A stretch of DNA of 64,000 nt from an uncultured Elusimicrobia bacterium (GCA_903917735.1 CAIXBR010000025.1:9761-73760); one strand, 5' to 3'; shown: positions 5,344 to 23,296, numbered from the stretch's first letter. Made by a program: numbers and translations. The notes: generated from the letters alone by a model not told the origin.

Positions 5344-7761
5344 ATGGCAAAAAAAAACAATCCGCCCGTTTCAGAACTTGACGACATAAAACTTCCTCCC
5401 GGCGTGAGTCTCGCTCGCAAAGCCATCTGGTGGTGGCTGCCGCTGCTGTACCTCCTTATTTCCGATACCTTCTACCTGCGCACCTACGATTCCGCCCAGG
5501 TAAAGATAACGCTGCTGCAGATGGGAGGCATAGGCATGCTTGGCCTGTGGATATCCCTGCTTATATTGGAAGGCCGGCGCGCTTTCCGCCGAGAGGACTT
5601 CATCTTCCTGGCTCCGTTCTTCGCCTACCTGCTGTACGTGGTGGTTTCCTTCTTCCACGCCCCGTACATGGGGTCCTGCGTGGACGACTTCGTCCGCTAT
5701 CTCCTTTACATGTCGGTCACCCTTATTGTGATAAGGGAGTTCTCACAGGAAGCCATAGACAGGCTGACCAAGATACTACTGATTACGGCCTACATAGCCA
5801 TACTTTACGGCGTGGTGCAGTTCCTGGACACGCGCTTCTTCCCGCCCAAAGACCAGGGGCCAGGACTTGATCCGTTCGTGTGGCGCTGGGCTTTCGGGCC
5901 GCGCGTGTTCTCCACCTACGGCAACCCCAACTTCTTCGGCAATTTCCTAGTGCTGATCCTGCCCATAATAGTTACGCAGTACCTAAAGCGCAAGTCCATT
6001 CTGCTGCTGCCGCTCATTTTCATGGACCTGCTCTGCCTCTACGGCACGCAGACCAAGGGCGCCTTCCTGGGCTTCGGCATTTCCGCGTTCCTTTTCGTCG
6101 TTTTCTACAGCTACTTCTTCCTGAGCGACCGCCTTAAGATCAACAGGGGGAAACTCCTTGCCATAGCCTGTATAATACCCTTATGCGCTTTTTTCGTGAT
6201 TTGCCATCTGGGCAACGCGCTGTCATACAGTTTCCGCATAAATACCTGGCTTTCCACCTGGGAGATGCTGGAATCGCACCCGCTGGTGGGCGTGGGAGTA
6301 GGCAGCTTCAAGGTGGTTTACCCGACGTACCGCCGGCCGGCCATTTTTCACATAGAGGGCAAGCATAACACCGAAACGGACCACGCGGAGGAAGAACACC
6401 TGGAACAGTGGATGGACAACGGGACGATAGGCTTCGGCCTTTACATCTGGATGATAGTGTTCGTTACGATAGTCGGGCTGCGGGGCCTGAGCGCGTATAC
6501 TGAAGGGCTGAAGGGCGCCCGGCCGCCTCCGGTAGCTTACGATCTGCTCGGCTACCTTACCTCCCTGCTGGGCATGCTGGCCCACAATTTTACAGACGTG
6601 AGCATGCGCTTCGTTTCCTCGGGAATATTTCTGGGCCTGCTGCCGGGAGTTATTATCAACCTGTCCCGCGGCCACGCGCTCTGGGAGCTGCACTACAAGG
6701 AAGAGGGACCGTCTTCCCGCTCCGAATCCGAAAAGAAGGCGGAACCGGACGGGGCCTATACCTGGGCCTTGTGGCTGGCCCGGGCGGCCGGCGTGGCCGG
6801 GGTCATCTACGCCGCCTACCTGGTGGTGGGAGAATTCAGCGAACTGCAGGGCCCGCTGCGCAACTACATAGCCTCTGGGGAGATACTGCAGTGGTATATA
6901 GCCTGGATGCTTTTGCTCGGCTGCGTGGGCTTTTTCGTGTACTCCTTCTGTGGAGTGATGCTGAAGGGCGCTTCGGCCGTAGTGCCGGTAGTGGTGCTGG
7001 TCACGCTTCTCCCGATGTATTACTTCTGGGGCTGGTTCAAGGGAGACGTCTACCACAACATGGCGATCTTCTTCTCCAAGCAGGGCAAGTGGGAGGACGC
7101 GATCAGCTATTACGAGAAGGTAAATAAGCTGGACAAGTATTTCATAATGCCCTACTATTTCACCGGCAACGTCTTCAACGACCGGTTCAACATGGAGAAG
7201 GCCTACCATCCCGAGTGGGGGGACAAGAACGGCGAAGCCCGCACCGATTTCGACAGGGCGATGGCCTCCTACGAGGCTGTGCGGTCTATAGCGCCCAACT
7301 ACGTGCAGATGCACCACCAGGTGGGCACGCTGTACATGAAGATGGCCGAATACCTTTCGCACAATAACCAGCCCGCGCAAGCGCAGAAGTACCTGGATAT
7401 GGCGCTGGCCCGGTTCAATCTCTACGAAAACCTGGACCCGGTCTACCCGATTAACTACTACAGGAAAGCGCAGATATATGTAATGCGACAGGACTTTAAG
7501 TCCGCCGAGCGGGAATATCTCAACAATCTGAACGCCTGGAAGTGCCACATACCGGGGCACCTGCACGATACGGCCGAGGCCTATACAAATCTCGGCAATG
7601 TTGAATACGCCATGGGTAAGTTCCGCGAAGCCGCGGACTACTATACCCTGGCCCTGCAGAAGGACCCTGCTTTCGAGCAGGCCAAGCGCAACCTGCCTAT
7701 AGCGCAGAGCCGCGTTCAGACCCGGACGCCGAGCCCGCTTATGGTTCCCGTACGCAGATAG
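5344..7761 (+). CDS. O-antigen-ligase-family (Wzy_C) polytopic membrane protein with C-terminal TPR domain
   Basis: More than 10 hydrophobic helices. Wzy_C-like core (YGNPNFFGNFLVLILPI, GTQTKGAFLGFG, HPLVGVGVGSFKVVYP, HAEEEHLEQWMDNGTIGFGLYIWM). The C-terminal ~250 aa are TPR (WEDAISYYEKVNKLD, AEAYTNLGNVEYAMGKFREAADYYTLALQKDP). Confidence 0.8.
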   Translation: MAKKNNPPVSELDDIKLPPGVSLARKAIWWWLPLLYLLISDTFYLRTYDSAQVKITLLQMGGIGMLGLWISLLILEGRRAFRREDFIFLAPFFAYLLYVVVSFFHAPYMGSCVDDFVRYLLYMSVTLIVIREFSQEAIDRLTKILLITAYIAILYGVVQFLDTRFFPPKDQGPGLDPFVWRWAFGPRVFSTYGNPNFFGNFLVLILPIIVTQYLKRKSILLLPLIFMDLLCLYGTQTKGAFLGFGISAFLFVVFYSYFFLSDRLKINRGKLLAIACIIPLCAFFVICHLGNALSYSFRINTWLSTWEMLESHPLVGVGVGSFKVVYPTYRRPAIFHIEGKHNTETDHAEEEHLEQWMDNGTIGFGLYIWMIVFVTIVGLRGLSAYTEGLKGARPPPVAYDLLGYLTSLLGMLAHNFTDVSMRFVSSGIFLGLLPGVIINLSRGHALWELHYKEEGPSSRSESEKKAEPDGAYTWALWLARAAGVAGVIYAAYLVVGEFSELQGPLRNYIASGEILQWYIAWMLLLGCVGFFVYSFCGVMLKGASAVVPVVVLVTLLPMYYFWGWFKGDVYHNMAIFFSKQGKWEDAISYYEKVNKLDKYFIMPYYFTGNVFNDRFNMEKAYHPEWGDKNGEARTDFDRAMASYEAVRSIAPNYVQMHHQVGTLYMKMAEYLSHNNQPAQAQKYLDMALARFNLYENLDPVYPINYYRKAQIYVMRQDFKSAEREYLNNLNAWKCHIPGHLHDTAEAYTNLGNVEYAMGKFREAADYYTLALQKDPAFEQAKRNLPIAQSRVQTRTPSPLMVPVRR

Positions 7762-7777
7762 CGGCGGTACAAGGATA

Positions 7778-10384
7778 ATGCCAGAACCGGACAATAACAA
7801 CCTCCCCGTCCCGCGCGCGCCGCTCGCCATGCTGCTGGCGGCGGCGTTCTTCGTTTCCCCGCTGCTGTTCTTTACCAGCCTTACGCGCAACCCGTACGAT
7901 CTCCAGATAACCCTTCTTAACGTTTCGGTGCTGGGCGCCGCTGCGCTTTTTATATACGGTTCGATCAAGCGCGGGCGCTGGCTGCTGCCGGCCACGGCGC
8001 TTTCCAGGCCGCTGGCGGCGCTGGCGCTGATATACCTGGTCTCTTTCGCCTGGTCCTGGTTCGGGCACGCCGCTTTTTACCGGCCGGCCATCGCGTCGGA
8101 AGGCCTGCGCGCGGGCCTGTTCTTCTTGATAAACTGCCTGGCCGTTTTTTACCTGGCGCTCGCCGTGCCTTACGGCGGGAAAGACTCCGAGGTGCCCGCC
8201 GGGAAGTGGCTGGCATTCATACTGGGCTGGGGGGCGCTGTGGTTCCTGTTCCCCTGGCTTAAAATGCAGCTGCCCGGCGAAGGGCTGTTCGAGCGGATCT
8301 TCGATCCCTACGGCGCCCTGCTCTGGGTTTCAGGTTTCACAGGGGTCTACCTTCTTATCCGTCGGACCCGCCAGGAGGACATACTGCACCTGGCGCTTTC
8401 CTCCGGAGCTATCGCCTCGCTTTACGGGATAATGGAGTATTTCCACTTCGAGCTGGTCTGGGCGAAACTCGTGAACCCTTACGGCAACCGCTCGGTCTCC
8501 ACTTTCGGGAACCCGAATTTCATTTCCTCCTACACCGTGCTTTTCCTTCCGCTGGCGGCCTCGCTGCTTATGAAGGCCGAGACCAGAGTTAAACGGTTCT
8601 TTTACGGCGTCATCTTCCTGGCCTACGGCGGGATGCTGATGTGCAGCCTTACGCGCTCGTCCTGGATAGGCGCCGCCGTTGCGTTCGTTTTTTTGTTCGC
8701 CTTCGGGGCGCACAGGGAGAAGCTGCGGACTAACAGGAAATTCCTTTACCCTTTCTTCGGCGTCGCCCTGCTACTTATGGTGCTCTGGCCGTCCGACAAC
8801 CTGAAACCTTTCAGCTCAGGGCTTGTAGAGCGCGTCACCGAAGCGACCTCCGGGATAAAGTCTTCCGCCGCGGTCAGCCTGTCGGGAGACTCCGGCCGGA
8901 TATATTCCTCCTTCCACCAGCGCCTGCTTATCTGGACCGGCGCCTGGCAGATGGGTCTGGAAAACCCGCTGCTGGGCAACGGCTGGGGGGAGTTCGAGCT
9001 TTTCTACCCTTTCTTTCAGGGCCGGCTTATAGTTAATTACCCGGTGATACGCGGCCTGCGCACCCACGCCAACAACGCCCATAACGAGCTGCTAGAACAG
9101 TGGTCGCAGACCGGCCTGCTGGGGCTCGGCGCCTACCTGTGGGTACTTGCCACGCTTTTTTACGGCTTCCTGCGCTTTTACCGCTCGGCTGACAGGGAAG
9201 CCCGCTACGACGCCGTTCCGCTAGCCGCTGGCCTGGCCGGCATTCTGGCCGACAACATGCTGAACGTCTCGATACATTTCGCGGTGCCAGCGCTCGGGTT
9301 CTGGTGGGTGGCGGGCGCGCTGGCGCTGAAGACCTCGGGCACTGGGGTTTATCCCGCGTGGCGGCGCCCCCGCGCGGCGGCTGCCGCGGCGTGGGTGCTC
9401 CTAGCCTGCTGCCTGGGGGCCGGCGTTATGTGGGAGCGCCAGTTCATGCGCGAGTTCTATTATTTCAACGGTTTCCGGGCGATGCGCGCAAATAACGCCC
9501 AGGCGGCCGTAGCCGAACTGCACAAGGCCTGGGAGGCGCACCCGCGCGAGGTCAACAGCAATTATGAGATGGGGAACGCTTACGTGCGCGCCGGGGAGCC
9601 GGAGAAAGGGGCCTGGGCCTACCTGGAGGCTCTTAAATCCAACGCGGGCTACGACGAGATCTATTTCAACCTGGCCATAGTGCTCAAGAAACTGAACCGC
9701 ATGGACGAGGCGCTAAAATATCTGAAGATCTCCTCGGTTATAAATCCGCTTAACCAAGTAACCTGGCAGGCTCTGGCGGAAGTGTATCTGGCCGCGCCGG
9801 ATAGGACGGCTATAGCAGCCGCGGCAGCCGCGGACTTCGAGGAGGCGGTGAAGATCTTCCCGCAGGACCCTAACATGTGGAACACGCTGGGATATTTTTA
9901 CACGCTTAAAAAGAACTATTCCTCCGCCCACGCCGCCTACTCGCGCGGGGTCAGGATAGAGCCGGGCAACGCCATGCTGGCGGAGAACCTGGCCGGCGTC
10001 TCGCGCCAACTGGGGCTTAAGAAAGATCCCGACCTGGACTGGCTGGCTTCCTATTCAGCCGTGGCGTCGCACGCGGATTCCGGCGGCGACGTGCCCGTAC
10101 TGCTGCGCCAGGCCAGCGCCCTGCTGGCGGCGGACCCGGGAAACCCGAAGGTCCGCATGCTGCGCGCAAAAATCTTCTTCAGGGCGGGCCGCCTGGCCGA
10201 GGCCAGGGCCGACCTGGAGGCCACACTGGAGGCCAGGCCCGCAGACAACTCCGCGCGCTACGGCTTGGCCGTAGTCTACGAGAAGGAAGGGAACAACCCG
10301 ATGGCCCGGGCACAGTGGGAGCGATTTCTTGAAATTGAGCCGAACAACGCCGCGGTGGCCGCGCGCCTGAAAGCCCTTAAATAG
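7778..10384 (+). CDS. Second O-antigen-ligase-family (Wzy_C) membrane protein with long C-terminal TPR domain
   Basis: Paralogous architecture to 5344..7761: FGNPNFISSYTVLFLPL, SLTRSSWIGAAVAF, NPLLGNGWGEFELFYP, HAHNELLEQWSQTGLLGLGAYLWV. About 330 aa of TPR repeats follow (YEMGNAYVRAGEPEKGAWAYLEALKSN, WNTLGYFYTLKKNYSSAHAAYSRGVRIEP, etc.). AAGGA lies 3 nt upstream of the ATG. Confidence 0.8.
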   Translation: MPEPDNNNLPVPRAPLAMLLAAAFFVSPLLFFTSLTRNPYDLQITLLNVSVLGAAALFIYGSIKRGRWLLPATALSRPLAALALIYLVSFAWSWFGHAAFYRPAIASEGLRAGLFFLINCLAVFYLALAVPYGGKDSEVPAGKWLAFILGWGALWFLFPWLKMQLPGEGLFERIFDPYGALLWVSGFTGVYLLIRRTRQEDILHLALSSGAIASLYGIMEYFHFELVWAKLVNPYGNRSVSTFGNPNFISSYTVLFLPLAASLLMKAETRVKRFFYGVIFLAYGGMLMCSLTRSSWIGAAVAFVFLFAFGAHREKLRTNRKFLYPFFGVALLLMVLWPSDNLKPFSSGLVERVTEATSGIKSSAAVSLSGDSGRIYSSFHQRLLIWTGAWQMGLENPLLGNGWGEFELFYPFFQGRLIVNYPVIRGLRTHANNAHNELLEQWSQTGLLGLGAYLWVLATLFYGFLRFYRSADREARYDAVPLAAGLAGILADNMLNVSIHFAVPALGFWWVAGALALKTSGTGVYPAWRRPRAAAAAAWVLLACCLGAGVMWERQFMREFYYFNGFRAMRANNAQAAVAELHKAWEAHPREVNSNYEMGNAYVRAGEPEKGAWAYLEALKSNAGYDEIYFNLAIVLKKLNRMDEALKYLKISSVINPLNQVTWQALAEVYLAAPDRTAIAAAAAADFEEAVKIFPQDPNMWNTLGYFYTLKKNYSSAHAAYSRGVRIEPGNAMLAENLAGVSRQLGLKKDPDLDWLASYSAVASHADSGGDVPVLLRQASALLAADPGNPKVRMLRAKIFFRAGRLAEARADLEATLEARPADNSARYGLAVVYEKEGNNPMARAQWERFLEIEPNNAAVAARLKALK

Positions 10385-10500: not shown

Positions 10501-12375
10501 ATGAAAAAAACAAAAGCGGTGAAGATTATGCTGCCGGCCGTCTTCCTGGCCGCATTCGCCGCAGCTGCCGGCCCGCTGTCGGCCGCGCTTTCCGCCCAGG
10601 CCGCGAACAGTTCCATAAGCCGCTCCATGGACCAGGCCATAAGGCTGTACCACGAGGAGCAGGATACCGAGGCGATGGACCGTTTTATGGACATATTGGT
10701 CAAGGGAACGCCCTCCGAAAAGGCCCTGGCCAACGAATATATCACCAAGATCACGCTGCGCATGAACACCGGCGTAAATACCACCAAGGACCGCGGCGCG
10801 GAGCCTACCACCCTCACCGAGGTTTCCCAGCCCAAGCCCGCCGGCCAGTCCTCGGCGCCAAGAAGCCAGCCCGCCGCGCATGCAGAGGCACAAGACGCTG
10901 AGGATGCCGAAAGGGCGCAGCTTGACGATAACCAGGCGCAGAAAGAACGCGTAGGAGAAAAAATATCCTCGAAAATAGCCCTGATGCGGCGCGACCTACT
11001 GCTGGAGCTCGGGAAGGCCGACCCCGTTAAACTGTACATGGGGGACGGGATGCCCAAGGCCATCACGCTGGACCCGAATTTTTTCTTCGCCAGCGAAGCC
11101 ACTTTCCGCGCCGGCACCGACAAGCTGCTTAGCTCCCTGGCCGGGCTTATTTTCACGCTGGGCAAAACTAACTGCCTCATACTGCCGGAGGGTTCGGCCG
11201 AGGGCGACGTAAAGATCAAGAGTATACGCCGCGCGCTGGCGCTTAATTCCTACCTGGAGTCGCGCGGCATTTCCAAGTCCAGGCTGGAGGTGAACCTTAC
11301 AGGCTCCGACGTCCGCTTCCCCAAGGAACTTACCAGTATAAGCGGAATCATTATTCTTTTTGATTATGACAAGCAGCCCCGCCTGAAAGACCTGGAGGAC
11401 ATGCAGACCAAGGGTCCCAAGGTCTCGCTGGGGATTTACCCGACGGCAATAGCCGTGAACAATAACGAGGGGGCGATAGTGGAATTCGCGGCTTTCGAAT
11501 CGCCTATAGGCCAGCCTTCCTGGAAGTTCCAGGTCTTTGAAATACAAAAGGACGGCAGCCGCCTGCAGCTGCAGGAGATCTCTGGTTCCGGCCCGCAGTA
11601 TAACCAGAGCTTCTGGAACGGGCGCAAGAAGTTCTTCGGCGCAGCATATCCCTCAGGCAAATATATGTTCATGGTTACCGCGGCCGACTCGGAGGGGCGC
11701 GAAACCTCTCTCAGCCGCCTGCTGCTGATAAAGCCCACGCCGGCCGAGGAAAAAGCCCTGCAGAACAGGACCGCCGCCCAGAAAGCGGCCGCCAAGGAGA
11801 CCGTAACTTCTTCGGGCGTAAAGACCAGGTCTGTTTCCAGGACCGGCACCGGGGTGAAGGCAGGCAAGATGCTGAAGGCGAAAGGCGCGACGGCGAAAGC
11901 TAAAAATCTGAAAGGGGCGGCCAAGGCGAAGGCGCTTAAGGGCGCCGGGGCCGGCAAGGCGGCGAAGAAGACGGCGCACGGAGCCAAGAAGCAGCCTGCG
12001 GCAGCCGAGGCGGACAGCTCCGCCGCGGCCGGCCAGGACTCAGGTGAGAACGCGCCCGCCGAACAGTCCTCCGGGCAGGTCAGCTATAAAATATATTTCA
12101 AGGAAAATACCACTATCCTTACCGACAACAGCGAGAAAAAACTGGGACAGGTAGCGGAAACTCTAGGCTACTACCCTCAGTCTAACATCCAGCTGACCGG
12201 CTACGCGTACTCCGGAGAGGCTAACGCAGAAGCGATGGCCGAGAACCGGGTGAACTATGTGTCCGCGCGGCTGGCGGAAAAGTATAAAATAGACAAGGCC
12301 CGGATGGAGGTTCAGTCCAAGGTTTCGGAGACCCCGAAGAGTACCGTTGAAATACGGATGACAGGCAAAGAATAG
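10501..12375 (+). CDS. Composite envelope protein: signal peptide, OmpA-like domain, FlgD-Ig-like domain, Lys/Ala-rich basic linker, second OmpA-like domain
   Basis: Signal peptide MKKTKAVKIMLPAVFLAAFAAAAGPLSA. Degenerate OmpA/MotB-like module (ITLDPNFFFASEATFRAGTDKLL...IKSIRRALALNSYLESRGISKSRLEV). FlgD-Ig-like WKFQVFEIQKDGS...FWNGRKKFFGAAYPSGKYMFMVTAADSEGRE. K/A-rich KAGKMLKAKGATAKAKNLKGAAKAKALKGAGAGKAAKK. C-terminal OmpA-like IQLTGYAYSGEANAEAMAENRVNYVSARLAEKYKI. Confidence 0.7.
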   Translation: MKKTKAVKIMLPAVFLAAFAAAAGPLSAALSAQAANSSISRSMDQAIRLYHEEQDTEAMDRFMDILVKGTPSEKALANEYITKITLRMNTGVNTTKDRGAEPTTLTEVSQPKPAGQSSAPRSQPAAHAEAQDAEDAERAQLDDNQAQKERVGEKISSKIALMRRDLLLELGKADPVKLYMGDGMPKAITLDPNFFFASEATFRAGTDKLLSSLAGLIFTLGKTNCLILPEGSAEGDVKIKSIRRALALNSYLESRGISKSRLEVNLTGSDVRFPKELTSISGIIILFDYDKQPRLKDLEDMQTKGPKVSLGIYPTAIAVNNNEGAIVEFAAFESPIGQPSWKFQVFEIQKDGSRLQLQEISGSGPQYNQSFWNGRKKFFGAAYPSGKYMFMVTAADSEGRETSLSRLLLIKPTPAEEKALQNRTAAQKAAAKETVTSSGVKTRSVSRTGTGVKAGKMLKAKGATAKAKNLKGAAKAKALKGAGAGKAAKKTAHGAKKQPAAAEADSSAAAGQDSGENAPAEQSSGQVSYKIYFKENTTILTDNSEKKLGQVAETLGYYPQSNIQLTGYAYSGEANAEAMAENRVNYVSARLAEKYKIDKARMEVQSKVSETPKSTVEIRMTGKE

Positions 12376-12414: not shown

Positions 12415-13980
12415 ATGGCCAAAACAGTCGGCACCAATTATCTCGGCATTTATATTTCCCCGAAGGAAATATGCATAGCCCAGGTCAAGATAGGCAAGGA
12501 CTCCAGGCCGGAGCCCGAGCATCTTATCAAATTCCCTACCGGCTTTCCGATGAAGGGAGGGATGCTGCGCCCGCTTTCCCTCAACAGCGATTTCTTCAAC
12601 GAGAAGGCGGCTTGGATCGACCCTTTCAGGCTGGCGGTCAAGAAGGTAGGCTGGGCGTCAAGCTCCGTCGTGGTCACCCTGTCGCCGCAGTTCGCGATAC
12701 TCCGCTATTTCGTTATGCCCTCCATAGAGCGGCGCTTCTGGAACAAGTCCATCCCGCTCGAGTCCAAGAAATACATTCCCGTCTCTTTCGAAGAGGTGAT
12801 CTACGATTTTAACGCCATTCCCGTCGAGGGCGCCAAAAAGCTGGGGGTGCTGTTCGGACTGACGCAGCGCAAGAGCGTGGAATTCATAACGGAGACGCTT
12901 AAAAGCGCCGGCCTCTCGCTGGCCGCGCTCGAGATAAACGCCGCTTCCATGGAACGCCTGTTCGGCTTTGCCGATCCCAAGGACCACGACGCCAAGGGCT
13001 ATATACATTTCTCGGAGAACTCCACGGTGATGCTGTTCTCTCACGGCGGCTACCCTGTCCTTTATCGCGAAACCGAAACGGACTCAGGCGGCGCGATGAG
13101 CGAGCGCAAGCGCCTGGACGTTAAGGGCGCCATACAATTCGTCGACCGCTACGTAGGCGGCAAGGACTACAAGACCATCGTCCTGAGCGGCGACGACGCC
13201 GAGGCCTGGAGGGCTGCCGCGGAAAAGGAGTCCGCCCCCACCCCGGTGGCCATCTGGGACTGCGGTAAGACATTTTCGCTGAAGGACAACGACGCGGCCT
13301 CCATCTTCGCGATGGGCGCCGCCCTGCGCGGACGCGCCCCGGCCAAACTGACGCTGGATATCTCCGGCATCACCGGCGCTATCCTGCTGGAAAAGCAAGT
13401 ACAGTCCTATGTCTGGAACATTACCTTTATTCTCGGCGCCCTCCTGCTGCTGCTCTCGCTGATAAGCGAGACCCGGCTGCTGCTGCTGAGCTCAAAGATC
13501 TCCGCCCTTAACACCAAGGTCATGGACTATCCCGAGCTGCAGGGGATGGAACCGGAAACTCTCAGGAAGAAGATCGACGGGATACTGACCAACGTTAAGG
13601 TGCTTTCTTCGCTGGTGACCGATACGGACGCCCTGGCGCCCAAGCTTTCCGCCGTAGCCGAAAGGATCCCTCTGGACCTGTGGCTGACGGATATCCATTA
13701 TTCCAATCCGCTGTCGGTCTCCGATATAGTGACCGGCGGCAAAGAGCTGACCCTTAACGGCGAGACAGGCCTGAAAGGCGAGGCCAAAATACGCGCGGTC
13801 GACGCGTTCAACAAGGCGCTGAAAGCGGCGCCTGAGTTCAAGGTCTTTCTGCCGCCTTCGGGCAGCATTGACAACACCACCGAAGAGGGCTCACAGGCCG
13901 CCACGCCTATGCCCGGCCAGGCGGCCGCGCTCACGAAAAGCAGCGCCTTCTCGGTAATGTGCGTGGTCAAAAGGAAATAA
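12415..13980 (+). CDS. pilMN: Type IV pilus assembly protein, PilM-PilN fusion
   Basis: The N-terminal ~320 aa are an actin-like PilM fold (YLGIYISPKEICIAQV..., KKYIPVSFEEVIYDF, LKSAGLSLAALEINAASMERLF). A single TM follows (VWNITFILGALLLLLSLI), then a ~165-aa periplasmic coiled-coil/PilN-like part. It sits directly upstream of pilO. Confidence 0.7.
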   Translation: MAKTVGTNYLGIYISPKEICIAQVKIGKDSRPEPEHLIKFPTGFPMKGGMLRPLSLNSDFFNEKAAWIDPFRLAVKKVGWASSSVVVTLSPQFAILRYFVMPSIERRFWNKSIPLESKKYIPVSFEEVIYDFNAIPVEGAKKLGVLFGLTQRKSVEFITETLKSAGLSLAALEINAASMERLFGFADPKDHDAKGYIHFSENSTVMLFSHGGYPVLYRETETDSGGAMSERKRLDVKGAIQFVDRYVGGKDYKTIVLSGDDAEAWRAAAEKESAPTPVAIWDCGKTFSLKDNDAASIFAMGAALRGRAPAKLTLDISGITGAILLEKQVQSYVWNITFILGALLLLLSLISETRLLLLSSKISALNTKVMDYPELQGMEPETLRKKIDGILTNVKVLSSLVTDTDALAPKLSAVAERIPLDLWLTDIHYSNPLSVSDIVTGGKELTLNGETGLKGEAKIRAVDAFNKALKAAPEFKVFLPPSGSIDNTTEEGSQAATPMPGQAAALTKSSAFSVMCVVKRK

Positions 13981-15348: not shown

Positions 15349-15408
15349 TTTCAGGCTGGTTAACCGGGTATTATTAACATATAATAGCAGTCAGGAACGG
15401 AGGAGTTT

Positions 15409-17169
15409 ATGAAGATTTTTAAGATTTTGCTTGTTCTAACTCTGGCGTTTGAGCAGCTTGTCTTCCCGATAGCCGGACTTTACGCCCAGGAAGCTCCCGC
15501 CGCCGCGGACAAGAGTTTCAGCCAGGACCTGCAGGGCCCGAGCACTGAGGAGGGGGGCCCCATACTGGAGTCCGGTTCCGACAATCCGCCGCCCGCCACA
15601 ATGCCCCAGGGCCAGACCCCCGGCACCCCTGTTGAGTCCGTCCAGATAGGCGCGGCCCCGAAGGATGCCCCGATGTACGAGGAGGCAGAATCTGTTTCCC
15701 CGCTCGACCGCAAGATAGGCCCCATACGGCTTAAGGGCGCCCCGCTCTCCACTTTCCTCGACGTGGTTTCGGCCCAGTCAAAGGTTAATTTCATCATTAC
15801 CGAAGGGCTCGAGGCCAAGACGATAACCGTTTTTCTGCGCAAAACCACCGTGCGCGAGGCGCTCGAACTACTGCTCAGAGTAAAGGGCCTCACCTACCAG
15901 CGCATAGGCAAGAGCAACACGTATGTCGTACAGAAGCGCTCCGCCGACATGCCCAACCTGATAACCAAGATTTACACGCTCAACTACATACCGCTCATCC
16001 CGATCTCCTCCGTAGGAGAAGAGCTGGCGTCCATAACCTCGCAGGATGTCTCCTCCTCCGGCTCCTCGGGCGGCCAGCAGCAGCAGCAGCAGGCGCAGAA
16101 TTCTCCCGGCGGCGGCAAAGAGACTGAGAGCCCTATTTCCATAATCAACATCGTAAAAAGCGTGCTTTCCAAGAAATACGGCAAGCTGGCCACTGACCCG
16201 CGCACCAACACCCTTGTTATTACGGATGTCCCGGAAGTTTTCCCGCAGGTGGAACAGATAATATCGGAACTGGACAAGAAAGCCCCCCAGATACTCATAG
16301 AGGCCCAGATAGTAGAAATAAACACCGACAGGATGAACGAGCTCGGTATAGAATGGGGCGGCTCCAAAGGCGAGATGGCCTATTTTGCCGGTCCCGCCCG
16401 TCTTACTGACTACGGCCTGCGCCCCGGGTTCTTCTCAGGGGATTCCTGGAAATATTTCTACCCCAGCACTACCGACATAGGCTCCGCTTCGCGCGGCAGC
16501 ACTTCCGGCAGCAGCAGTTCCGGCTCCTCCGGCAGCAGCAGCAGCGGCGGCGGCGGCGGCACGATAGACCCTATATACTCCAGCGGCCAGCAGAGCTCCA
16601 AAGGCGTTTATTACGGCGTATTCAGCCTGGCGCAGCTGTCTGCCCTTTTCCGCGCGCTGATATCAAAAGGCGAAGGGCGCTACCTTGGCAAACCTAAGAT
16701 AGTGGCCATGAACAACAAGACGGCGCTTATACAAATTTCGAAGGACGCCGCCATGGGAACCGTAAGCCAGACGTCCTCGTCCGGTGGCGCTACCGGCAGT
16801 TCCTCCTCAGGCGTGGAACGCCGGCGCATAGGCCTTACCATGAAGGTCACCCCACAGGTGAACAAGGAAGGCTATATCACCATGATAGTCCAGCCTTCCT
16901 ATTCCGATTCCATCGCGTCCGCCGTCACGGTCAACGGCGCTACCGTTTTCGACCCCGTAAGCCGCGGCGCGTCCACTATGGTGCGCGTCAAGAACGGCCA
17001 GACGGTAGTTATAGGCGGCATGCTCGCCTCCACCGAGTCGAAGATTATACGCAAAGTGCCCCTTTTAGGGTATATCCCGATAATAGGCTGGCTGTTTACC
17101 AGCGTCAGCGCCAGACGCACCAACACCGACCTGGTGATCTTCCTCACGCCCACGATACTGGTGGACTAG
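15409..17169 (+). CDS. pilQ: Type IV pilus secretin PilQ
   Basis: Signal peptide and an N0/STN-like domain (FLDVVSAQSKVNFIITEGL...). Secretin_N (LATDPRTNTLVITDVPEVFPQVEQIISELD). Secretin core ending in the classic VPLLGYIPIIGWLFTSVSARRTNTDLVIFLTPTIL. Confidence 0.9.
   Translation: MKIFKILLVLTLAFEQLVFPIAGLYAQEAPAAADKSFSQDLQGPSTEEGGPILESGSDNPPPATMPQGQTPGTPVESVQIGAAPKDAPMYEEAESVSPLDRKIGPIRLKGAPLSTFLDVVSAQSKVNFIITEGLEAKTITVFLRKTTVREALELLLRVKGLTYQRIGKSNTYVVQKRSADMPNLITKIYTLNYIPLIPISSVGEELASITSQDVSSSGSSGGQQQQQQAQNSPGGGKETESPISIINIVKSVLSKKYGKLATDPRTNTLVITDVPEVFPQVEQIISELDKKAPQILIEAQIVEINTDRMNELGIEWGGSKGEMAYFAGPARLTDYGLRPGFFSGDSWKYFYPSTTDIGSASRGSTSGSSSSGSSGSSSSGGGGGTIDPIYSSGQQSSKGVYYGVFSLAQLSALFRALISKGEGRYLGKPKIVAMNNKTALIQISKDAAMGTVSQTSSSGGATGSSSSGVERRRIGLTMKVTPQVNKEGYITMIVQPSYSDSIASAVTVNGATVFDPVSRGASTMVRVKNGQTVVIGGMLASTESKIIRKVPLLGYIPIIGWLFTSVSARRTNTDLVIFLTPTILVD
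16075..16092 (+). repeat. (CAG)6 trinucleotide microsatellite inside pilQ (encodes QQQQQQ)
   Basis: Direct read: cagcagcagcagcagcag. A second run, ggc(agc)4(ggc)5, lies at about 16531..16560. Confidence 0.9.
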
Positions 17170-17240: not shown

Positions 17241-18989
17241 ATGGCACACAAACTCCTCGGCGAAATAATGATCCAGGCGAAATGGATCGACGAAGAGAAA
17301 CTGAACAAGGCGCTCAAGTTCCAGGTTCAGCAGAGCTGCCTTATAGGCGAGGCCCTGGTCAAGCTGCATTACGCCACAGAAGAGCAGGTGGCCATGGCGC
17401 TGGGCAAGCAGCTCGGCATCCCTTACGCCTCCAAAGAGAACCAGATCCTGAACCCCGAAAAGACCCAGGGGCTAGACAAGATGATCCCCGAGAAGTTTGC
17501 CCGCGACAACGCGGTCATTCCGCTGTTCGTGGAGAACAACGTCCTGGCGGTGGCCATGACGGACCCCACCAACATCATGATGATGGACAACATCAAGCTG
17601 GTGTCCGGCATGGAGATACAGCCCTTCATCTCCACCAAGGCCCAGATACTCAAGGTCATAGACGCTTTCTTCCAGGGCCAGACGAACATGATCGACACGG
17701 TGCTGGACAAGGCCGTGGGCGGCAAGGGGGGGGAAACCTCTGATACCGACGTGATCACCGCGGACGGCAAGCTGGACCTGGACAAGGTCATCATCGGCGA
17801 GTCCAAGGGCGCGCAGTCCATAAAGCTGGTCAACGCCATCATGAAGCAGGCGATCAGCGAGCGGACCAGCGACATCCATCTTGAGAAATTCGACGAGAAA
17901 GTGTCCCTGCGCCTGCGCATAGACGGCGTGCTCTACGAGCGCAGCGCCCCGCCGAACGACCTGGTGGACGCGATGATCTCGCGCGTCAAGATCCTTTCGA
18001 AGCTGGATATTTCCGAGCGGCGCCTGCCGCAGGACGGCAGCTTCTCCATAAAGTACCAGAACCGCGTCATAGAGATCCGCGTTTCCGTCTGCCCGACGGT
18101 GTTCGGCGAGAAGCTCGTCATGCGTATTCTGGACAGGGGCTCGGTGGAGCTCAACGTTAAGATCATAGGCTTCGAGCCGCGCCAGATGGAGGACTTCCTT
18201 AAGGCGGCCTCCGCTCCCAACGGCCTTATCTTCCTTACCGGCCCCACCGGCTCCGGAAAGACCACCACGCTTAACGCCGTGCTTAACACTATCAAGTCTC
18301 CCGAACTGAATATCATGACGCTTGAAGACCCCGTAGAAATCAAGATGGAGGGCATCAGCCAGGTGCAGGTAAAGCCGGCGATCGGCCTCACCATGGCCTC
18401 CGGCCTGCGCTCCTTCCTCCGCCAGGACCCCGACGTCATCCTGGTCGGAGAGGTCCGCGACAACGAGACAGCCGAGGCGTGCCTGAAGGCCGCCATGACG
18501 GGCCATCTCGTGCTTTCCACTCTGCACACCAACAGCGCCCTGGAAGCCATTCCGCGTCTGCTGGACATGGGCATAGAGCGCTACCTGCTCGCCAGCACCC
18601 TGCTCTGCCTGGCCGCCCAGCGCCTGGTGCGCCAGCTCTGCCCCGAATGCAGGATCCCCTACCGGCCCCCGCAGTCCGAGTTGGACCAGCTGGCCGCTGA
18701 GTCCATGCTTAACCCGCTTCCCGACCTGACCAGGCTGACTTTTTACAAGCCCAAAGGCTGCCCCAGGTGCAACAACATGGGCTACAAGGGCCGCAAGGCC
18801 ATCTACGAGGTGTACTTCAACACCGAGGAGATGAAGAAGATCATCTACAAGGACGCCGACGTCCAGAAGATAGCCGTGGAAGCCGCCAAGAGCGGCGCGT
18901 GGAACCTGCGGGCCAGCGGCTGGCGCAAGGTCCTGGCAGGCGTCACCTCCGTGGACGACATGCTCTCCGTAACGGTGAGCGAGCGCTAA
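17241..18989 (+). CDS. pilB: Type IV pilus assembly ATPase PilB (GspE family)
   Basis: T2SSE_N/MshEN-like N-terminus. Walker A GPTGSGKTTTLNA, Asp box, Walker B DPDVILVGEVRD, His box LVLSTLHTN. Tetracysteine motif CPECRIPY...CPRCNNMG. Confidence 0.92.
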   Translation: MAHKLLGEIMIQAKWIDEEKLNKALKFQVQQSCLIGEALVKLHYATEEQVAMALGKQLGIPYASKENQILNPEKTQGLDKMIPEKFARDNAVIPLFVENNVLAVAMTDPTNIMMMDNIKLVSGMEIQPFISTKAQILKVIDAFFQGQTNMIDTVLDKAVGGKGGETSDTDVITADGKLDLDKVIIGESKGAQSIKLVNAIMKQAISERTSDIHLEKFDEKVSLRLRIDGVLYERSAPPNDLVDAMISRVKILSKLDISERRLPQDGSFSIKYQNRVIEIRVSVCPTVFGEKLVMRILDRGSVELNVKIIGFEPRQMEDFLKAASAPNGLIFLTGPTGSGKTTTLNAVLNTIKSPELNIMTLEDPVEIKMEGISQVQVKPAIGLTMASGLRSFLRQDPDVILVGEVRDNETAEACLKAAMTGHLVLSTLHTNSALEAIPRLLDMGIERYLLASTLLCLAAQRLVRQLCPECRIPYRPPQSELDQLAAESMLNPLPDLTRLTFYKPKGCPRCNNMGYKGRKAIYEVYFNTEEMKKIIYKDADVQKIAVEAAKSGAWNLRASGWRKVLAGVTSVDDMLSVTVSER

Positions 18990-19053: not shown

Positions 19054-20277
19054 ATGGGAAAATTCATATACACCGTTCAGGACGCCCAGGGCACGGTCAC
19101 GACCGGCGCCATGGACGCCGACGACGAGGACGGCGCGGTACAATCCCTGCAGACAAAAGGGCTTTTCATCCTCTCCATACAGGCGGAGGACACTAAGGCC
19201 AGGGGCATACTGAACATCAGGAAGTTCAAAAGCGGCAAAGTATCCGGCCGTGAGATGGTGTTCTTCGGTGAGCAGATGGCCACGCTGATAGGCGGCGGCA
19301 TCCCGTTGGTGCGCGCCCTGTCGCTCTTGAGCGAGCACACCGACAACAAGAACCTGGGCGCGGTGCTGGGCGCCATCACGAAGGAAGTCTCCGCCGGCGG
19401 CGCCTTCCACAAGGCCCTGGAAAAACACCCCAAGGTGTTCGACGAGATATGGGTCTCCCTGGTGCAGGCCGGCGAGGTTTCCGGCCAGCTCCCGGCCGTG
19501 CTCCGCCAGATAACCAATTACAGCGAATCCCAGGAGAACGTAAAGTCCAAGATCATCACCGCTATCTCCTACCCCGCCGTGCTGATGACGATGTCGATGG
19601 GCGTGCTGATCTACTTCGTGCTCTACATCGTGCCGGTGTTCGCGGGCATCTTCCGCGACTTTAACCTGACGCTGCCGCTGATAACCCGGATGATAGTGGG
19701 CATCTCCGCCGTAGTGGCCAGGTTCGCCGTGCTGGGGATAGTCAGCGCTATAGCCGGCGTCTTCGCCTTCCGCGCCTACATTTCCACTCCGCCCGGACGC
19801 CTTACCTGGAACCACGTCACGTTCGGCCTCCCGCTGGTCGGCGACCTGGTCCGCTCCATGCAGATAGAGCGCCTGCTTACGACCATGGCCACGCTGATAC
19901 GCTCGGGCGTCAGCATCCTGAACGCGGTGTCGGTGCTGGAGGGGGCTTTCAAGAAGAACCTTATCTTCCAGAACGCCCTAAAAAAAGCCAAGAACGACAT
20001 CGCCAGCGGCCGCTCTATCTCCGAATCCTTCAAAAAGACGGGTATCTTCCCGCCTATGGTGACCGAGATGATGTGGATGGGAGAGGAATCCGGCAAATTG
20101 CCTGATATCATCGGCGTGCTTTCCAAGTATTACCAGGAGCAGATAGACCAGTGGCTGCGGCGCTTCTCTTCAATGATCGACCCGATACTGGTGGTGGGCA
20201 TCGGCGGCATAATCGGCGTCATCGTGATGAGCATCTTCATGCCTATCTTCCAGCTGTCACAGATCAGCTCCGGCTAG
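19054..20277 (+). CDS. pilC: Type IV pilus platform protein PilC (GspF family)
   Basis: 407 aa with two T2SSF repeats (FFGEQMATLIGGGIPLVRALSLL and ERLLTTMATLIRSGVSILNAVSVL). Three TM blocks. Position after pilB. Confidence 0.92.
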   Translation: MGKFIYTVQDAQGTVTTGAMDADDEDGAVQSLQTKGLFILSIQAEDTKARGILNIRKFKSGKVSGREMVFFGEQMATLIGGGIPLVRALSLLSEHTDNKNLGAVLGAITKEVSAGGAFHKALEKHPKVFDEIWVSLVQAGEVSGQLPAVLRQITNYSESQENVKSKIITAISYPAVLMTMSMGVLIYFVLYIVPVFAGIFRDFNLTLPLITRMIVGISAVVARFAVLGIVSAIAGVFAFRAYISTPPGRLTWNHVTFGLPLVGDLVRSMQIERLLTTMATLIRSGVSILNAVSVLEGAFKKNLIFQNALKKAKNDIASGRSISESFKKTGIFPPMVTEMMWMGEESGKLPDIIGVLSKYYQEQIDQWLRRFSSMIDPILVVGIGGIIGVIVMSIFMPIFQLSQISSG

Positions 20278-20306: not shown

Positions 20307-20783
20307 ATGAAAAAAAACAAAACCAGGGGCTTTACCCTTATAGAACTTATGGTGGTGGTGCTTATTATAGGCATACTGGCCTCCATGGGCGTACCATATT
20401 ATTACAAGACCGTAGAAACCACCAAGGCCGAGAACTCGGTCGCCATAGGTCATCTGCTCGGGAACGCGTACCGGATGTTCCTGATCGACAACCCCGGAAC
20501 CACCATTAGCGGCCAGGTCACCAACAGCTGTAACACCACCAGCTGCAGCACAGGGGACCTCAGCGCCTGCCGGCTGGTGCGGTGCAGCTACGTGGCGCAG
20601 CAGGACTGGCAGAATTCCTCCTATAATTTTTTTGTCGGTCCCGGCTCCTGCGGAGTCGGAGCGACCTCCTGCACGCGCCGGAACGGGGGGAATGCCCCTT
20701 ACAGCACCTGGGGGTATAATTTCGGCACCGACGGGGCCTGCACAACGGTAGGTACCGGCGTGCCGGCCTGCCCCAAGTTCTGA
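20307..20783 (+). CDS. Type IV (pseudo)pilin, probable major subunit, Cys-rich
   Basis: ORF 20151..20783 trimmed to ATG 20307. Class III signal MKKNKTRG|FTLIELMVVVLIIGILASMGVPYY (prepilin N-methylation motif, Glu at +5). The globular part contains 8 Cys. Confidence 0.85.
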   Translation: MKKNKTRGFTLIELMVVVLIIGILASMGVPYYYKTVETTKAENSVAIGHLLGNAYRMFLIDNPGTTISGQVTNSCNTTSCSTGDLSACRLVRCSYVAQQDWQNSSYNFFVGPGSCGVGATSCTRRNGGNAPYSTWGYNFGTDGACTTVGTGVPACPKF

Positions 20784-20787
20784 TCCT

Positions 20788-21243
20788 ATGAAAACACGGA
20801 AAAGGCCCGGACAGACCCTTATAGAGGTTGTTATGGCCACTATGATAGCGGCCATGACCACTACCGCCGTGTTTTCGGTTATACTTTCAAGTTTCGTCTC
20901 CGACGCCAAGGCGGATAAGCGCGACGCCGCGGCGATGGCGCTGAAGCGGGCGCAGGAGACGCTGAAAAGCTACGTGAGCTCGCAGCCCGGGGATTCCACC
21001 TACGTGCCCGGCTCCCCGGCGGGGCACTGGGCGGCGGACAGCGGCGCAGTATGGGCGCTGCGCGAAGGGTCTCATGATGTTTCCTCCATGGTCGCCAGCC
21101 CGCCGCTGACCGTTGCCGGCCAGACGGCGGCGTCTTTAACCTATACCGTGGTAAGCTACAACTGCGGGTTCGGCATAGGCTCGGCCCCCAATTACGAGAC
21201 GGCCTGCAAGCGCGTGGTTTTTCTGCTTACCTACCCGGACTGA
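20788..21243 (+). CDS. Minor pseudopilin
   Basis: MKTRKRPG|QTLIEVVMATMIAAMTTTAVFSV is a prepilin-like leader with Glu+5. 4-nt gap to the preceding pilin gene. Confidence 0.7.
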   Translation: MKTRKRPGQTLIEVVMATMIAAMTTTAVFSVILSSFVSDAKADKRDAAAMALKRAQETLKSYVSSQPGDSTYVPGSPAGHWAADSGAVWALREGSHDVSSMVASPPLTVAGQTAASLTYTVVSYNCGFGIGSAPNYETACKRVVFLLTYPD

Positions 21244-21245
21244 TT

Positions 21246-21923
21246 ATGGCTAAAAGAAAAGGCTTTACGCTGGCCGAACTGGTGCTGGCTATTTTCATCT
21301 TCAGCTTCATGTCAATGTCCCTGGCCACTATTTACGCCACGGCCAACCGGCATATGTTCCAGAATTACCGCCGCAATATAATAAAAACAAACGCCGACTT
21401 TGCCATGAAAGCCATACAGAACAATCTTTCCATGGCCACCCGCCTGGACTCCCCGCCTTACGGCGGCGCCGGCAATATACTCGCTTTCGCCACCAATGTG
21501 GACCAGCTTAACGGCTGTTACCCCATAAGCACCGGAGATACCGCCGCTTGGCACTATTTCTGCGTAACCCCTGACGCCACCCTGCCGGCGGTCAATGACC
21601 TGTATTACCATACCGGGATCATTGCGGGCGGGACCGGCTGCGCGGTGGCCGCTCCCTCTGCCTGGAACGGCCCTTATCCTAATTTCTGCGGTCCCGGGGG
21701 CGGGGGGACCGTTATGCTGCTTATGCAGTATGTCATCCCGCTGGCGCCGCCGCGCAGCCAGTTCGCTTTTTCCCGCAGCGCCGCCGACGGCGTGACCGAA
21801 GTGCCGGATGTGCGCATTATGCTGCGCTCCTACTGGAACGCCGCGAACCGCGGCTTCGGCAGCAGCCAGCGCGATATAGATTTTACGCTGGACACGGTCC
21901 TTACCGTTAACCGGACAAAATAG
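21246..21923 (+). CDS. Minor pseudopilin
   Basis: MAKRKG|FTLAELVLAIFIFSFMSMSLATIY is a prepilin N-methylation motif with Glu+5. 2-nt gap to the upstream gene. Confidence 0.75.
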   Translation: MAKRKGFTLAELVLAIFIFSFMSMSLATIYATANRHMFQNYRRNIIKTNADFAMKAIQNNLSMATRLDSPPYGGAGNILAFATNVDQLNGCYPISTGDTAAWHYFCVTPDATLPAVNDLYYHTGIIAGGTGCAVAAPSAWNGPYPNFCGPGGGGTVMLLMQYVIPLAPPRSQFAFSRSAADGVTEVPDVRIMLRSYWNAANRGFGSSQRDIDFTLDTVLTVNRTK

Positions 21924-21983
21924 TTCCCCCACCGCACAACTCAGAGCATTGAAAATACGGGGTTTCTCTGCTAGACTATTAAT

Positions 21984-22331
21984 ATGAAATCTCTCCGCTG
22001 GAGACGGGGCATGATATTGCTCCAGACGCTTGTTATGTCCGTTATTCTTTCCATGATGGCGGTCATGGTGCTTAAATGGATAATGGGCCGCTATATGATG
22101 GCCGCGCGCAACTACCGCTCCACCACCACAAGGGGCCGGGCTATGGGCTATTATCAGGACCGGTTCGCAAACTGGAACTGGAACACTACGGGTATGCCCG
22201 CTCTTTCCCAGACCACGATAACCGAATCGTATCCCTCCGGGACAGCCCAACAGGTATGCGTACGTTCTTTAGGCAACGGAAAATTCCAGGTCACCTCCGA
22301 CCAGGACACTGTCGGCGGCGCCTGTCCCTGA
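21984..22331 (+). CDS. PilX/GspK-like minor pilin (no Glu+5)
   Basis: MKSLRWRRG|MILLQTLVMSVILSMMAVMVLKW is a pilin-like hydrophobic N-terminus with Gln instead of Glu at +5, as in GspK/PilX-type subunits. The small globular domain has 2 Cys. Confidence 0.5.
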   Translation: MKSLRWRRGMILLQTLVMSVILSMMAVMVLKWIMGRYMMAARNYRSTTTRGRAMGYYQDRFANWNWNTTGMPALSQTTITESYPSGTAQQVCVRSLGNGKFQVTSDQDTVGGACP

Positions 22332-22396
22332 GAGCCCTCTATGCAGACATCATCGTATCTTCCCGGGGCTGAGCGCTGCGCGCACTGGCGGAGCCG

Positions 22397-23296
22397 GTGA
22401 ACGCCCTGGCGCTGGCGGCGATACTGCTGTCGGCCCCGGCTTCCGGAGCCGCCCGCGCCGCCGCCCCGCCCGCCGTGGCTTGGCACACAAAGACCTCACC
22501 TCATTTCGAGATCATGCACGAATCCGTCTGGTCCCCCGGCGCGATAGCGCTGGAACTGGAGAAGATGTATTCCTCCATGCGCCTGAACCTGGCCATGTTC
22601 GCGCCCTGGATGGTGAGCGAGAAGGCCAAGGTTTACATCTATTCCTCCCAGGATTCCTTCCTTAGTGGGGAATTCAAGCCGCCCCGCTGGTCGAAAGGGC
22701 TGGCTTACGTCTCAAAAAAAACCATCGTCGTTTACGACACCGGGGATATAGGGAAGCTGAAAAGCGTTATCGCCCACGAGCTTACCCATCTTTATTTCGA
22801 GGGCTACTTCTCTGAGAAACTCAAGTATCCCCCGCAGTGGCTCAATGAAGGCCTGGCCGTCTATATGGAGGAATCAGCCAACCCGGAAAGCGGGCCCTGG
22901 AGCAGGGCACTGGCCTACTTCCCGCAGGACAGGCGCGTGCCGTTCGAGAAGTTCTTCTATCTGAACATAGCGCAGGTGGATTCCGACACCAAGATAGCCG
23001 ACTGGTATCTGCAGGCTTACGGCGCCGTCCTTTACCTGTACAGGCCCGCTACCCGGCTGCAGTTCAAGAGCTTCTGCGAGGCCCTCAGGGGGGGAATGGG
23101 GCTGGAGGACGCGCTTTGGCGCAATTACAGGCTGGGGTCGGGCGCGGATTTCGGGAACAAGTGGTCCGCCTGGCTTGAGGAATACGCCCGGCCGGATAAG
23201 GACGGCCTGCGGTCAGCCAGCCCGTCGGCTAGCTTCAATTTTAAGCCGGTGCAGCTCTCTTCCTACACTTTCGTAAATTTCGGGGCAAAGAAATAG
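22397..23296 (+). CDS. Secreted MA-clan (gluzincin) zinc metallopeptidase-like protein
   Basis: GTG start at 22397 with GGAG upstream. Signal peptide LALAAILLSAPASGAARA. HExxH (VIAHELTHLYFE) followed 20 residues later by NEGLAVYME, a candidate third-ligand Glu. Confidence 0.6.
   Translation: MNALALAAILLSAPASGAARAAAPPAVAWHTKTSPHFEIMHESVWSPGAIALELEKMYSSMRLNLAMFAPWMVSEKAKVYIYSSQDSFLSGEFKPPRWSKGLAYVSKKTIVVYDTGDIGKLKSVIAHELTHLYFEGYFSEKLKYPPQWLNEGLAVYMEESANPESGPWSRALAYFPQDRRVPFEKFFYLNIAQVDSDTKIADWYLQAYGAVLYLYRPATRLQFKSFCEALRGGMGLEDALWRNYRLGSGADFGNKWSAWLEEYARPDKDGLRSASPSASFNFKPVQLSSYTFVNFGAKK

Follow-up and report, generated by a model that had tools for sequence, protein, structure and literature searches.

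Some type IVa pili (T4aP), such as those of Myxococcus xanthus (PilBTCMNOPQ/PilA) and Thermus thermophilus, are encoded in single large gene clusters. PilB, PilC, PilM, PilO, a secretin and class III pilins are found in common with these systems in a gene cluster on the plus strand (positions 5344–23296) of a 64,000-nucleotide stretch of DNA, hereafter the window, from an uncultured Elusimicrobia bacterium (GCA_903917735.1, CAIXBR010000025.1:9761-73760); its 14 genes are numbered g01 to g14. Unlike in the T4aP of M. xanthus and T. thermophilus, however, PilM and PilN form one polypeptide, the PilP-like protein is held by a transmembrane (TM) anchor and is not a lipoprotein, and the secretin is without AMIN domains; the locus also lacks pilT, pilD, a pilotin and TsaP, and contains three extra conserved genes, g01–g03. 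Elusimicrobia are a deep-branching, almost uncultured phylum. It is fairly probable that this locus, in the Elusimicrobiales, encodes a complete envelope-spanning filament machine of the T4aP kind, probably from one transcript and nearly unchanged across the phylum, to which g01–g03 have been added for glycosylation and anchoring.

The other system that invites comparison is that of type II secretion (T2SS), in which GspL has the same topology as the PilM–PilN fusion g04 (a cytoplasmic actin-like domain, a TM segment and a periplasmic domain) and whose GspM models are matched by g05; compared with the T2SS, the cluster is without a GspG head, GspK, a GspC PDZ domain and known substrates. As judged from sequence, the machine belongs to the type IV filament superfamily as a divergent, T4aP-like system and is not a T2SS; it is filed in this way because g04 matches PilM structures, the major pilin has no GspG head and pilT is present in a sister cluster. 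In the terms of Denise et al. 2019, it corresponds to a 'generic' system.

Layout and conservation of the locus

The layout given in an earlier note on this DNA, 14 plus-strand genes within 5344–23296 and a largest gap of 116 nt, was confirmed by the open reading frame (ORF) list and by Pfam and NCBIfam scans, with intergenic distances from g01 to g14 of 16, 116, 39, 4, −4, 60, 71, 64, 29, 4, 2, 60 and 65 nt. Its gene identities also hold overall, except that the FlgD-Ig label of g03 has no support in Pfam and that the PilP-like label of g06 comes down to architecture, a motif and a sub-threshold match. The left edge of the syntenic block is a tRNA-Thr(CGU) gene (5205–5277, plus strand), which the earlier note overlooked and which lies 67 nt upstream of g01. 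At the right edge, g14 and uvrA converge, and their stops are separated by a strong, GC-rich hairpin of 13 bp (23295–23324) that resembles a bidirectional terminator; this is the only terminator-like hairpin found, and it stands at the cluster end. Because of the compact co-directional layout and the presence of such a hairpin at the end only, the 14-gene locus is probably a single transcription unit. The top sigma70-like site of the region (5164–5192) precedes the tRNA-Thr gene, and read-through from this promoter into the operon may occur.

The first search with the PilM–PilN fusion returned 125 relatives, of which all named ones are Elusimicrobia. A scan of one genome per species then gave 76 loci, all of them in Elusimicrobial metagenome-assembled genomes, and the window proteins were compared with the loci by tblastn. 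Across about 80 Elusimicrobial loci, the order g01–g14 is kept on one strand in nearly all that are sufficiently long, down to approximately 30% protein identity and as far as Elusimicrobium minutum-like genomes, where the PilMN identity is 33%. Each core or accessory gene is present on the same strand in 85–100% of the loci covering its position: g01 in 46/51, g02 in 61/64 and g03 in 68/68, where it is always directly upstream of PilMN; g05–g09 in 57/59 up to 47/47; and the minor pilins in 34/40 to 44/46. The 14-gene cluster is thus a genuine, strongly conserved unit of Elusimicrobia.

The start of the block is fixed although the genes upstream of it vary, and homologues of g02 at 40% identity stand in the same cluster with entirely different upstream neighbours. 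In very divergent lineages, g03, g04, g05 and g06 stay together despite displaced pilB and pilC, and some of these lineages have a single Wzy_C protein with a tetratricopeptide repeat (TPR) domain. In 34 of 40 loci, E. minutum-like and very divergent ones among them, the first Wzy_C-TPR gene is preceded by the tRNA-Thr gene. The earlier note had supposed that the flanking genes might belong with the pil core. For the Wzy_C-TPR pair (g01, g02) and the OmpA composite (g03) this is borne out in so far as they adjoin the core in essentially every Elusimicrobial locus that is long enough; the peptidase (g14) is also a conserved neighbour, but it is inverted in Elusimicrobium-like loci and is kept no better than tRNA-Thr or uvrA.

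The core itself is not confined to the phylum. A PilMN-fusion profile searched against 1.84 billion representative proteins gave 573 matches at E ≤ 1e-10, and the named members of the distant tier belong to Candidatus Omnitrophota. Two Omnitrophota clusters (L083, L084) have the identical core order of PilM–PilN, PilO, a small GspB/PilP-like protein, secretin, MshEN-PilB, PilC and pilins; the counterpart of g06 has a weak T2SSB/GspB match, a small helix-turn-helix gene lies upstream, and the Wzy_C-TPR proteins, the OmpA composite and the gluzincin peptidase are absent. A true PilT gene ends the L084 cluster (15187–16248, GCA_034717435.1), with 449 bits for TIGR01420 against a cut-off of 319. 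Because g01–g03 are absent from these homologous clusters, they are regarded as lineage-specific additions. On such sequence comparison, the core is an older, shared T4aP-like module, and g01–g03, together with the position of g14, are Elusimicrobial additions.

In a related PilMN-type cluster on a groundwater metagenome contig (L085), a 330-amino-acid (aa) FliG_M protein (8696–9688) stands between PilO and the secretin, and a protein resembling part of the flagellar rotor would not be expected within a pilus operon.

Genes flanking the pilus core

The cluster is headed by two paralogues of the WaaL superfamily. The first, g01 (5344–7761, plus strand, 805 aa), is a Wzy_C membrane enzyme (Pfam Wzy_C E = 9e-12) with a C-terminal region matching TPR families; the second, g02 (7778–10384, plus strand, 868 aa), is a Wzy_C membrane enzyme (E = 2.7e-16) with a TPR superhelix of about 10 repeats. 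Their Wzy_C scores are 45.5 and 60.1 bits, respectively, against a cut-off of 31.7, and the best NCBIfam match of g01 is the IctB family. The AlphaFold2 (AF2) model of g02 (pLDDT 87.9, pTM 0.86) consists of a polytopic domain, a large loop at residues 336–436, four more helices and a TPR superhelix at 570–868, and R428, H430 and H435 in the catalytic periplasmic loop are invariant. When the TM-domain profile of g02 was compared with the PDB, the sole match was the ligase WaaL (7tpg, E = 6.8e-8), aligned over the catalytic periplasmic loop, while a Foldseek search with the whole of g02 was dominated by TPR proteins (OGT, SPY, APC) and was uninformative on the membrane domain. A hydropathy scan alone is insufficient for the topology of g01 and g02, for which the AF2 helices and the positive-inside rule were used; since the loops at 466–478 and 518–532 are rich in Arg and Lys, these helices and the positive-inside rule place the TPR domain of g02, as modelled, in the periplasm.

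No large periplasmic TPR domain is known from WaaL or Wzy enzymes. According to a review, Wzy_C and a C-terminal TPR motif occur together in WsfB and PglL, which are protein O-oligosaccharyltransferases (PMC2943079). Like PglL, TfpO/PilO and WsfB, g01 and g02 are polytopic membrane proteins with a Wzy_C catalytic loop, and like WsfB and PglL they end in a TPR region, although theirs is much longer (about 300 aa). As with tfpO, g01 and g02 stand in the neighbourhood of pilin genes, but they form the operon head and do not directly adjoin the pilin gene. Unlike PglL-type enzymes, they are two paralogues without detected PglL_A or Wzy_C_2, putative transferases known from sequence. By analogy with these enzymes, a role in glycosylation is plausible for g01 and g02.

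The third gene, g03 (10501–12375, plus strand), encodes a periplasmic OmpA/Ig composite (Pfam OmpA 38.6 bits, cut-off 27.2), whose architecture was derived from a 32-sequence alignment and an AF2 model (mean pLDDT 72; about 85–93 in the domains). From the N-terminus, it comprises a signal peptide, a conserved helical head (aa 40–90), a long helix (127–172), a degenerate OmpA-like domain (176–290) that is visible in the AF2 model only, an Ig-like β-sandwich (305–411), a disordered Lys/Ala-rich linker and a C-terminal OmpA-like domain (528–621). In Foldseek, the OmpA-like fold aligns to 3td3 and 9uu2 with TM-scores of 0.7–0.8, and both entries are also matches of the PDB profile search. Its neighbours in sequence and fold include the peptidoglycan-binding domains of A. 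baumannii OmpA, OprF and Pal, as well as PorE of the type IX secretion system (T9SS), TagL of the type VI secretion system (T6SS) and MotY. Peptidoglycan binding by g03 is likely, on the evidence of alignment and model. In TagL (T6SS), PorE (T9SS), MotY/MotB, ExeA/GspA and TsaP/FimV, as in g03, an OmpA-like fold is encoded inside the operon of the machine; g03 differs from these anchors in its unique five-part architecture, in which a conserved helical head is combined with an Ig-like domain and two OmpA-like ones, and in the replacement of the canonical binding-pocket Asp in the C-terminal domain. Within the searches made, the g03 family has matches in Elusimicrobia only.

At the other end of the cluster, g14 (22397–23296, plus strand) encodes a gluzincin metallopeptidase with a Sec-type signal peptide (Peptidase_MA_2 43.4 bits, cut-off 32.4). 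The HExxH...E residues H127, E128, H131 and E151 do not vary among 30 orthologues, and the protein aligns to the M1 aminopeptidase core. In Elusimicrobium-like loci (L058, L059, L063 and L064), the orthologue is inverted and shares the orientation of uvrA, and it is outside the pil transcript there because of this inversion. It is therefore doubtful that g14 belongs to the pilus machine; it probably acts independently, as a periplasmic or secreted enzyme, and not as a pilin-maturation factor. The latter role was rejected because of its Sec-signal soluble topology, of the PilD sites retained in the pilins and of its strand inversion in some lineages, and a soluble gluzincin with a signal peptide would not plausibly replace the membrane aspartyl prepilin peptidase. 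The proposal of the earlier note that the flanking genes may be lineage-specific substitutes for glycosylation, peptidoglycan anchoring and maturation thus stays plausible for the first two functions, in g01–g03, and is unsupported for maturation by the peptidase, given the retained PilD sites and its soluble topology.

Pilus core, pilins and missing genes

The alignment complex begins with g04 (12415–13980, plus strand), the PilM–PilN fusion, which was assigned from weak matches to PilM_2 and TIGR01175, a structure-profile match and a TM scan. Its actin-like domain, in the cytoplasm, is followed by a single TM segment (about aa 335–357) and a periplasmic domain of 160 aa. Its profile matches the PilM structures 3jc8_M, 2ych and 5eox at E of about 2e-6 and does not match GspL, while the PilN portion is a prediction from topology alone. 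The next gene, g05 (13985–14590, plus strand), encodes a PilO/GspM-like bitopic protein (Pfam PilO 29.4 bits, cut-off 22) that also matches T2SSM and T2SSM_b. It is followed by g06 (14587–15348, plus strand), labelled PilP/GspB-like on the basis of an alignment and a sub-threshold match to PF16537, the GspB HR domain (E = 0.0012). In this protein, the N-terminal TM anchor is followed by a Pro/Ala-rich linker, a SYxxPKSxRDPTLSP motif and a small C-terminal β domain, and its motif (RDP(T/F)xSP) resembles M. xanthus PilP and aligns to it, non-significantly. It has been reported that OutB/GspB scaffolds the T2SS secretin and has a TM–linker–HR architecture (PMC12274547), a layout that it shares with g06.

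The outer-membrane secretin is g07 (15409–17169, plus strand), with matches to Pfam Secretin (E = 2.9e-41) and Secretin_N and a weak one to STN; no AMIN domain was matched in it in the Pfam scan. Its scores are all under the cut-offs, which are given in parentheses: 205.8 (351) bits for GspD, 199 (284) for PilQ and 133 (250) for MshL. The PilB/GspE-type assembly ATPase g08 (17241–18989, plus strand; T2SSE E = 8e-130) matches the PilB model TIGR02538 best, with 576 bits (675), followed by GspE with 537 (630). Its N-terminal MshEN-like domain, also matched by MshEN in Pfam, passes the MshEN model NF053729 (44.1 versus a cut-off of 38). The motif of MshEN that binds cyclic di-GMP (c-di-GMP) is RLGxx...Q, present twice. 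In g08, the two half-motifs (window 17241–17420) read KLLGE... and CLIGE..., so that Leu replaces both c-di-GMP-contacting Arg residues, whereas RLGE is kept in some orthologues, including an E. minutum-like one; control of PilB by c-di-GMP may therefore differ between lineages, as far as these motifs indicate. The PilC/GspF inner-membrane platform g09 (19054–20277, plus strand), identified by two T2SSF matches (E = 1.3e-56) and by NCBIfam, scores higher with GspF (352.6 bits, cut-off 424) than with the PilC models (303 and 287).

The major pilin is g10 (20307–20783, plus strand, 158 aa), which passes N_methyl and TIGR02532 (32.8 versus 16.3); its true start is at 20307, instead of that of the long GTG ORF, and its leader is MKKNKTRG|FTLIE. 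Alignment shows that g10 is one orthologous Cys-rich pilin across the phylum (38–69% identity), and such a pilin is found after PilC in 42/46 loci. A hypervariable major pilin was considered, since tblastn missed g10 in most loci, and was rejected when direct extraction recovered the orthologue in those 42 of 46. The N-terminal helix of g10 matches T4a pilins and GspG alike; no T2SSG match was found in Pfam, and the match to the GspG model TIGR01710 (37.9 versus 88.85) covers the N-terminal helix only. Furthermore, g10 and its orthologues have 6–10 cysteines in the head, always in even number, and a conserved C-P-x-F end, which suggests three to five disulfides in the g10 head, unusually many for a type IV pilin.

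Three smaller pilin-like genes follow on the plus strand: the minor pilins g11 (20788–21243; N-terminus RPG|QTLIE) and g12 (21246–21923, 225 aa; KRKG|FTLAE), and g13 (21984–22331; RRG|MILLQ), a small pilin-like protein matched by no family model, whose orthologues begin with (K/R)(K/R)G|x(I/V)LLQ and thus have Gln, not Glu, at +5. Assignment of the minor pilins to GspH/I/J/K or FimU/PilV/W/X was tried, and PDB-profile and NCBIfam searches matched the N-terminal helix only; NCBIfam found no GspK-like protein among the three. All four pilin-like proteins have Gly at −1 and a hydrophobic stretch from +1 to +20, and Glu5 is present in three of the four, the signature of PilD substrates. Because all four retain class III cleavage sites of the form G|(F/Q/M)xxx(E/Q), PilD is presumably required and would have to be encoded elsewhere in the genome; PilT may likewise be encoded elsewhere.

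The earlier note had also listed functions missing from the 64 kb, and Pfam scans and, for PilT, tblastn agree that there is no recognisable PilD, PilT, pilotin, PilY1 or LysM/AMIN anchor in the window. For PilD, Pfam was run on candidate ORFs and inter-ORF gaps and the remaining translations were read by eye, aided by Pfam labels from neighbouring assemblies, with no match in the window; AMIN, LysM, PilY1 and pilotin models also gave none there. The Omnitrophota PilT matched only PilB, once each, in tblastn against the window and all 85 loci, and no PilT was found within ±10 kb of about 80 Elusimicrobial loci. Neither pilD nor pilT was found in the flanks of the window (about 6 kb on the left and 2 kb on the right) or in the divergent loci L070 and L074. 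A pil locus without pilD and pilT is ordinary. In KEGG-based surveys, symbiotic Elusimicrobiota are listed with PilABCDQM(E) and free-living members with PilTABCDQM; pilD has been reported in all Endomicrobium genomes examined, with a competence role suggested for the retained pilin and pilD genes in Endomicrobia (PMC8809381). The suggestion of the earlier note that the machine could be a non-retractile fibre or secretion device is left unsupported, without being refuted, because a pil locus that lacks both genes is nothing unusual and the Omnitrophota sister cluster has pilT in cis; pilT is also reported in free-living Elusimicrobiota.

Alternative readings, working model and meaning

Several observations weigh against a T4aP-like machine with dedicated added genes. 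Beyond the cluster, tRNA-Thr (34/40 loci) and uvrA (about 20 loci) are conserved neighbours too, and co-travel alone is no proof that g01, g02 and g14 work with the pilus, because gene order is conservative beyond function. No PglL_A or Wzy_C_2 was found in g01 or g02 by Pfam at E ≤ 0.01. Genes for lipopolysaccharide (LPS) are abundant in the window (LptABC, KdsAB, WaaA, LpxK, heptosyltransferases), so that a role of the Wzy_C proteins in LPS or exopolysaccharide (EPS) is possible. In g03, the C-terminal OmpA-like domain has Tyr570 in place of the canonical Asp that binds diaminopimelate, although the Arg (R583) is invariant. The core proteins all miss the NCBIfam equivalog cut-offs, with T2SS models scoring about as well as T4aP ones, and the assignments of g06 are all below significance.

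In one rival reading, the pilus consists of the core only, from g03 or g04 to g13, the Wzy_C-TPR proteins being O-antigen ligases or polymerases or EPS polymerases, the peptidase a housekeeping enzyme, and the adjacency a product of conserved gene order. That conservation of the unrelated tRNA-Thr and uvrA extends over an equal phylogenetic range, that the sole solved relative of g02 is an O-antigen ligase, that g01 is matched best by the IctB family and without PglL-specific domains, that much of the window is taken up by genes for LPS core and transport, with a GT9 gene upstream of the cluster, and that the peptidase is inverted in some lineages are all in keeping with it. However, the large periplasmic TPR domain, not known from WaaL or Wzy enzymes, is present in protein O-oligosaccharyltransferases; g01 and g02 stay with the pil block on the same strand, with gaps of 16 and 116 nt, while everything upstream changes; and divergent lineages with rearranged pilB and pilC still hold a TPR protein in the cluster. 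The core-only reading is considered unlikely, while keeping some weight.

A T2SS-like device, with a short periplasmic endopilus, the gluzincin as cargo and no need for a retraction ATPase, is more improbable. It would account for GspD, GspE and GspF models scoring equal to or higher than those of PilQ and PilC, for the GspL-like topology of the PilM–PilN fusion, for the resemblance of the TM-anchored, HR-like g06 to GspB/GspC, for a major pilin that is well conserved and not hypervariable, for the lack of PilT in the window and near any Elusimicrobial locus, and for a peptidase of secreted type adjoining the cluster. Against it, the N-terminal domain of g04 matches PilM structures and not GspL, the pilin has no T2SSG/GspG head (37.9 versus 88.85 bits) and is accompanied by three minor pilins only, none GspK-like, the Omnitrophota sister cluster has PilT and pilT is reported in free-living Elusimicrobiota, and in Elusimicrobium-like genomes the peptidase gene has the reverse orientation. 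With matches of PilM type, not GspL type, and no GspG signature, the sequence appears to offer no positive support for a secretion device. That the filament is chiefly a competence pilus for DNA uptake, as proposed for Endomicrobia relatives (PMC8809381) and hinted at by weak ComP_DUS matches of pilins in related clusters, is very improbable, since the window has no comEA, comEC or dprA and the ComP_DUS matches are sub-threshold and outside this window; it is in any case a claim on use, not on the machine, and is compatible with the T4aP-like reading.

In the preferred, T4aP-like reading, PilC, driven by PilB, would draw pilins processed by PilD out of the inner membrane, and the pilins would be polymerised through the alignment complex of PilMN, PilO and the TM-anchored g06 and through the secretin. 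Most likely, g03 would tie the alignment complex or the secretin to peptidoglycan, replacing AMIN domains and anchors of the TsaP/FimV type, and g01 and g02 would use undecaprenyl-pyrophosphate-linked glycans to O-glycosylate pilins or another envelope protein, in the manner of WsfB and PglL. A bolder version, which is tentative and rather doubtful, has the TPR arms of both Wzy_C enzymes docking on the assembly complex and glycosylating pilins at loading, or acting as the missing pilotin or secretin-assembly factor, with g03 forming a new periplasmic ring in place of AMIN, TsaP and FimV. Such a machine-integrated pair of O-oligosaccharyltransferases would have no described precedent among type IV filament systems.

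The rest of the window contains uvrA, nadB, pyrG, SecDF, YajC, Tgt, QueA, SpoIID, RuvABC, YebC and a group II intron. The LPS region (33798–54151), an alternative context for the Wzy_C proteins, includes LptB, LptA, LptC, KpsF, KdsA, KdsB, an RfaE-like kinase, a GmhB-like HAD protein, LpxK, WaaA, several GT9 heptosyltransferases and a polysaccharide deacetylase. The group II intron (31790–33476, plus strand) is matched by Rfam RF02001 (125.6 bits, 31790–31959) and RF01998 (31984–32060); its reverse transcriptase/maturase frame is split into two ORFs (31889–32809 and 32826–33476) and may be interrupted. At 48364–52877 (plus strand), a protein of 177 aa that carries a C-terminal sorting domain of T9SS type A (TIGR04183, 36 bits versus 23) is followed by a 1324-aa Gly/Thr/Ser-rich protein without a Pfam or NCBIfam match.

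The finding has no bearing on the long-standing open questions of pilus biology. If the Wzy_C-TPR pair is indeed directed at pilins, it would be a new O-oligosaccharyltransferase architecture, of interest to glycoengineers; should g03 form a ring bound to peptidoglycan, secretin machines would have a third independent means of wall anchoring, besides AMIN domains and LysM proteins. The surface structures of Elusimicrobia have hitherto been listed by automatic annotation only, and a phylum-wide pilus operon, with a core shared with Omnitrophota and three added genes, provides a testable model of how filament machines gain parts.

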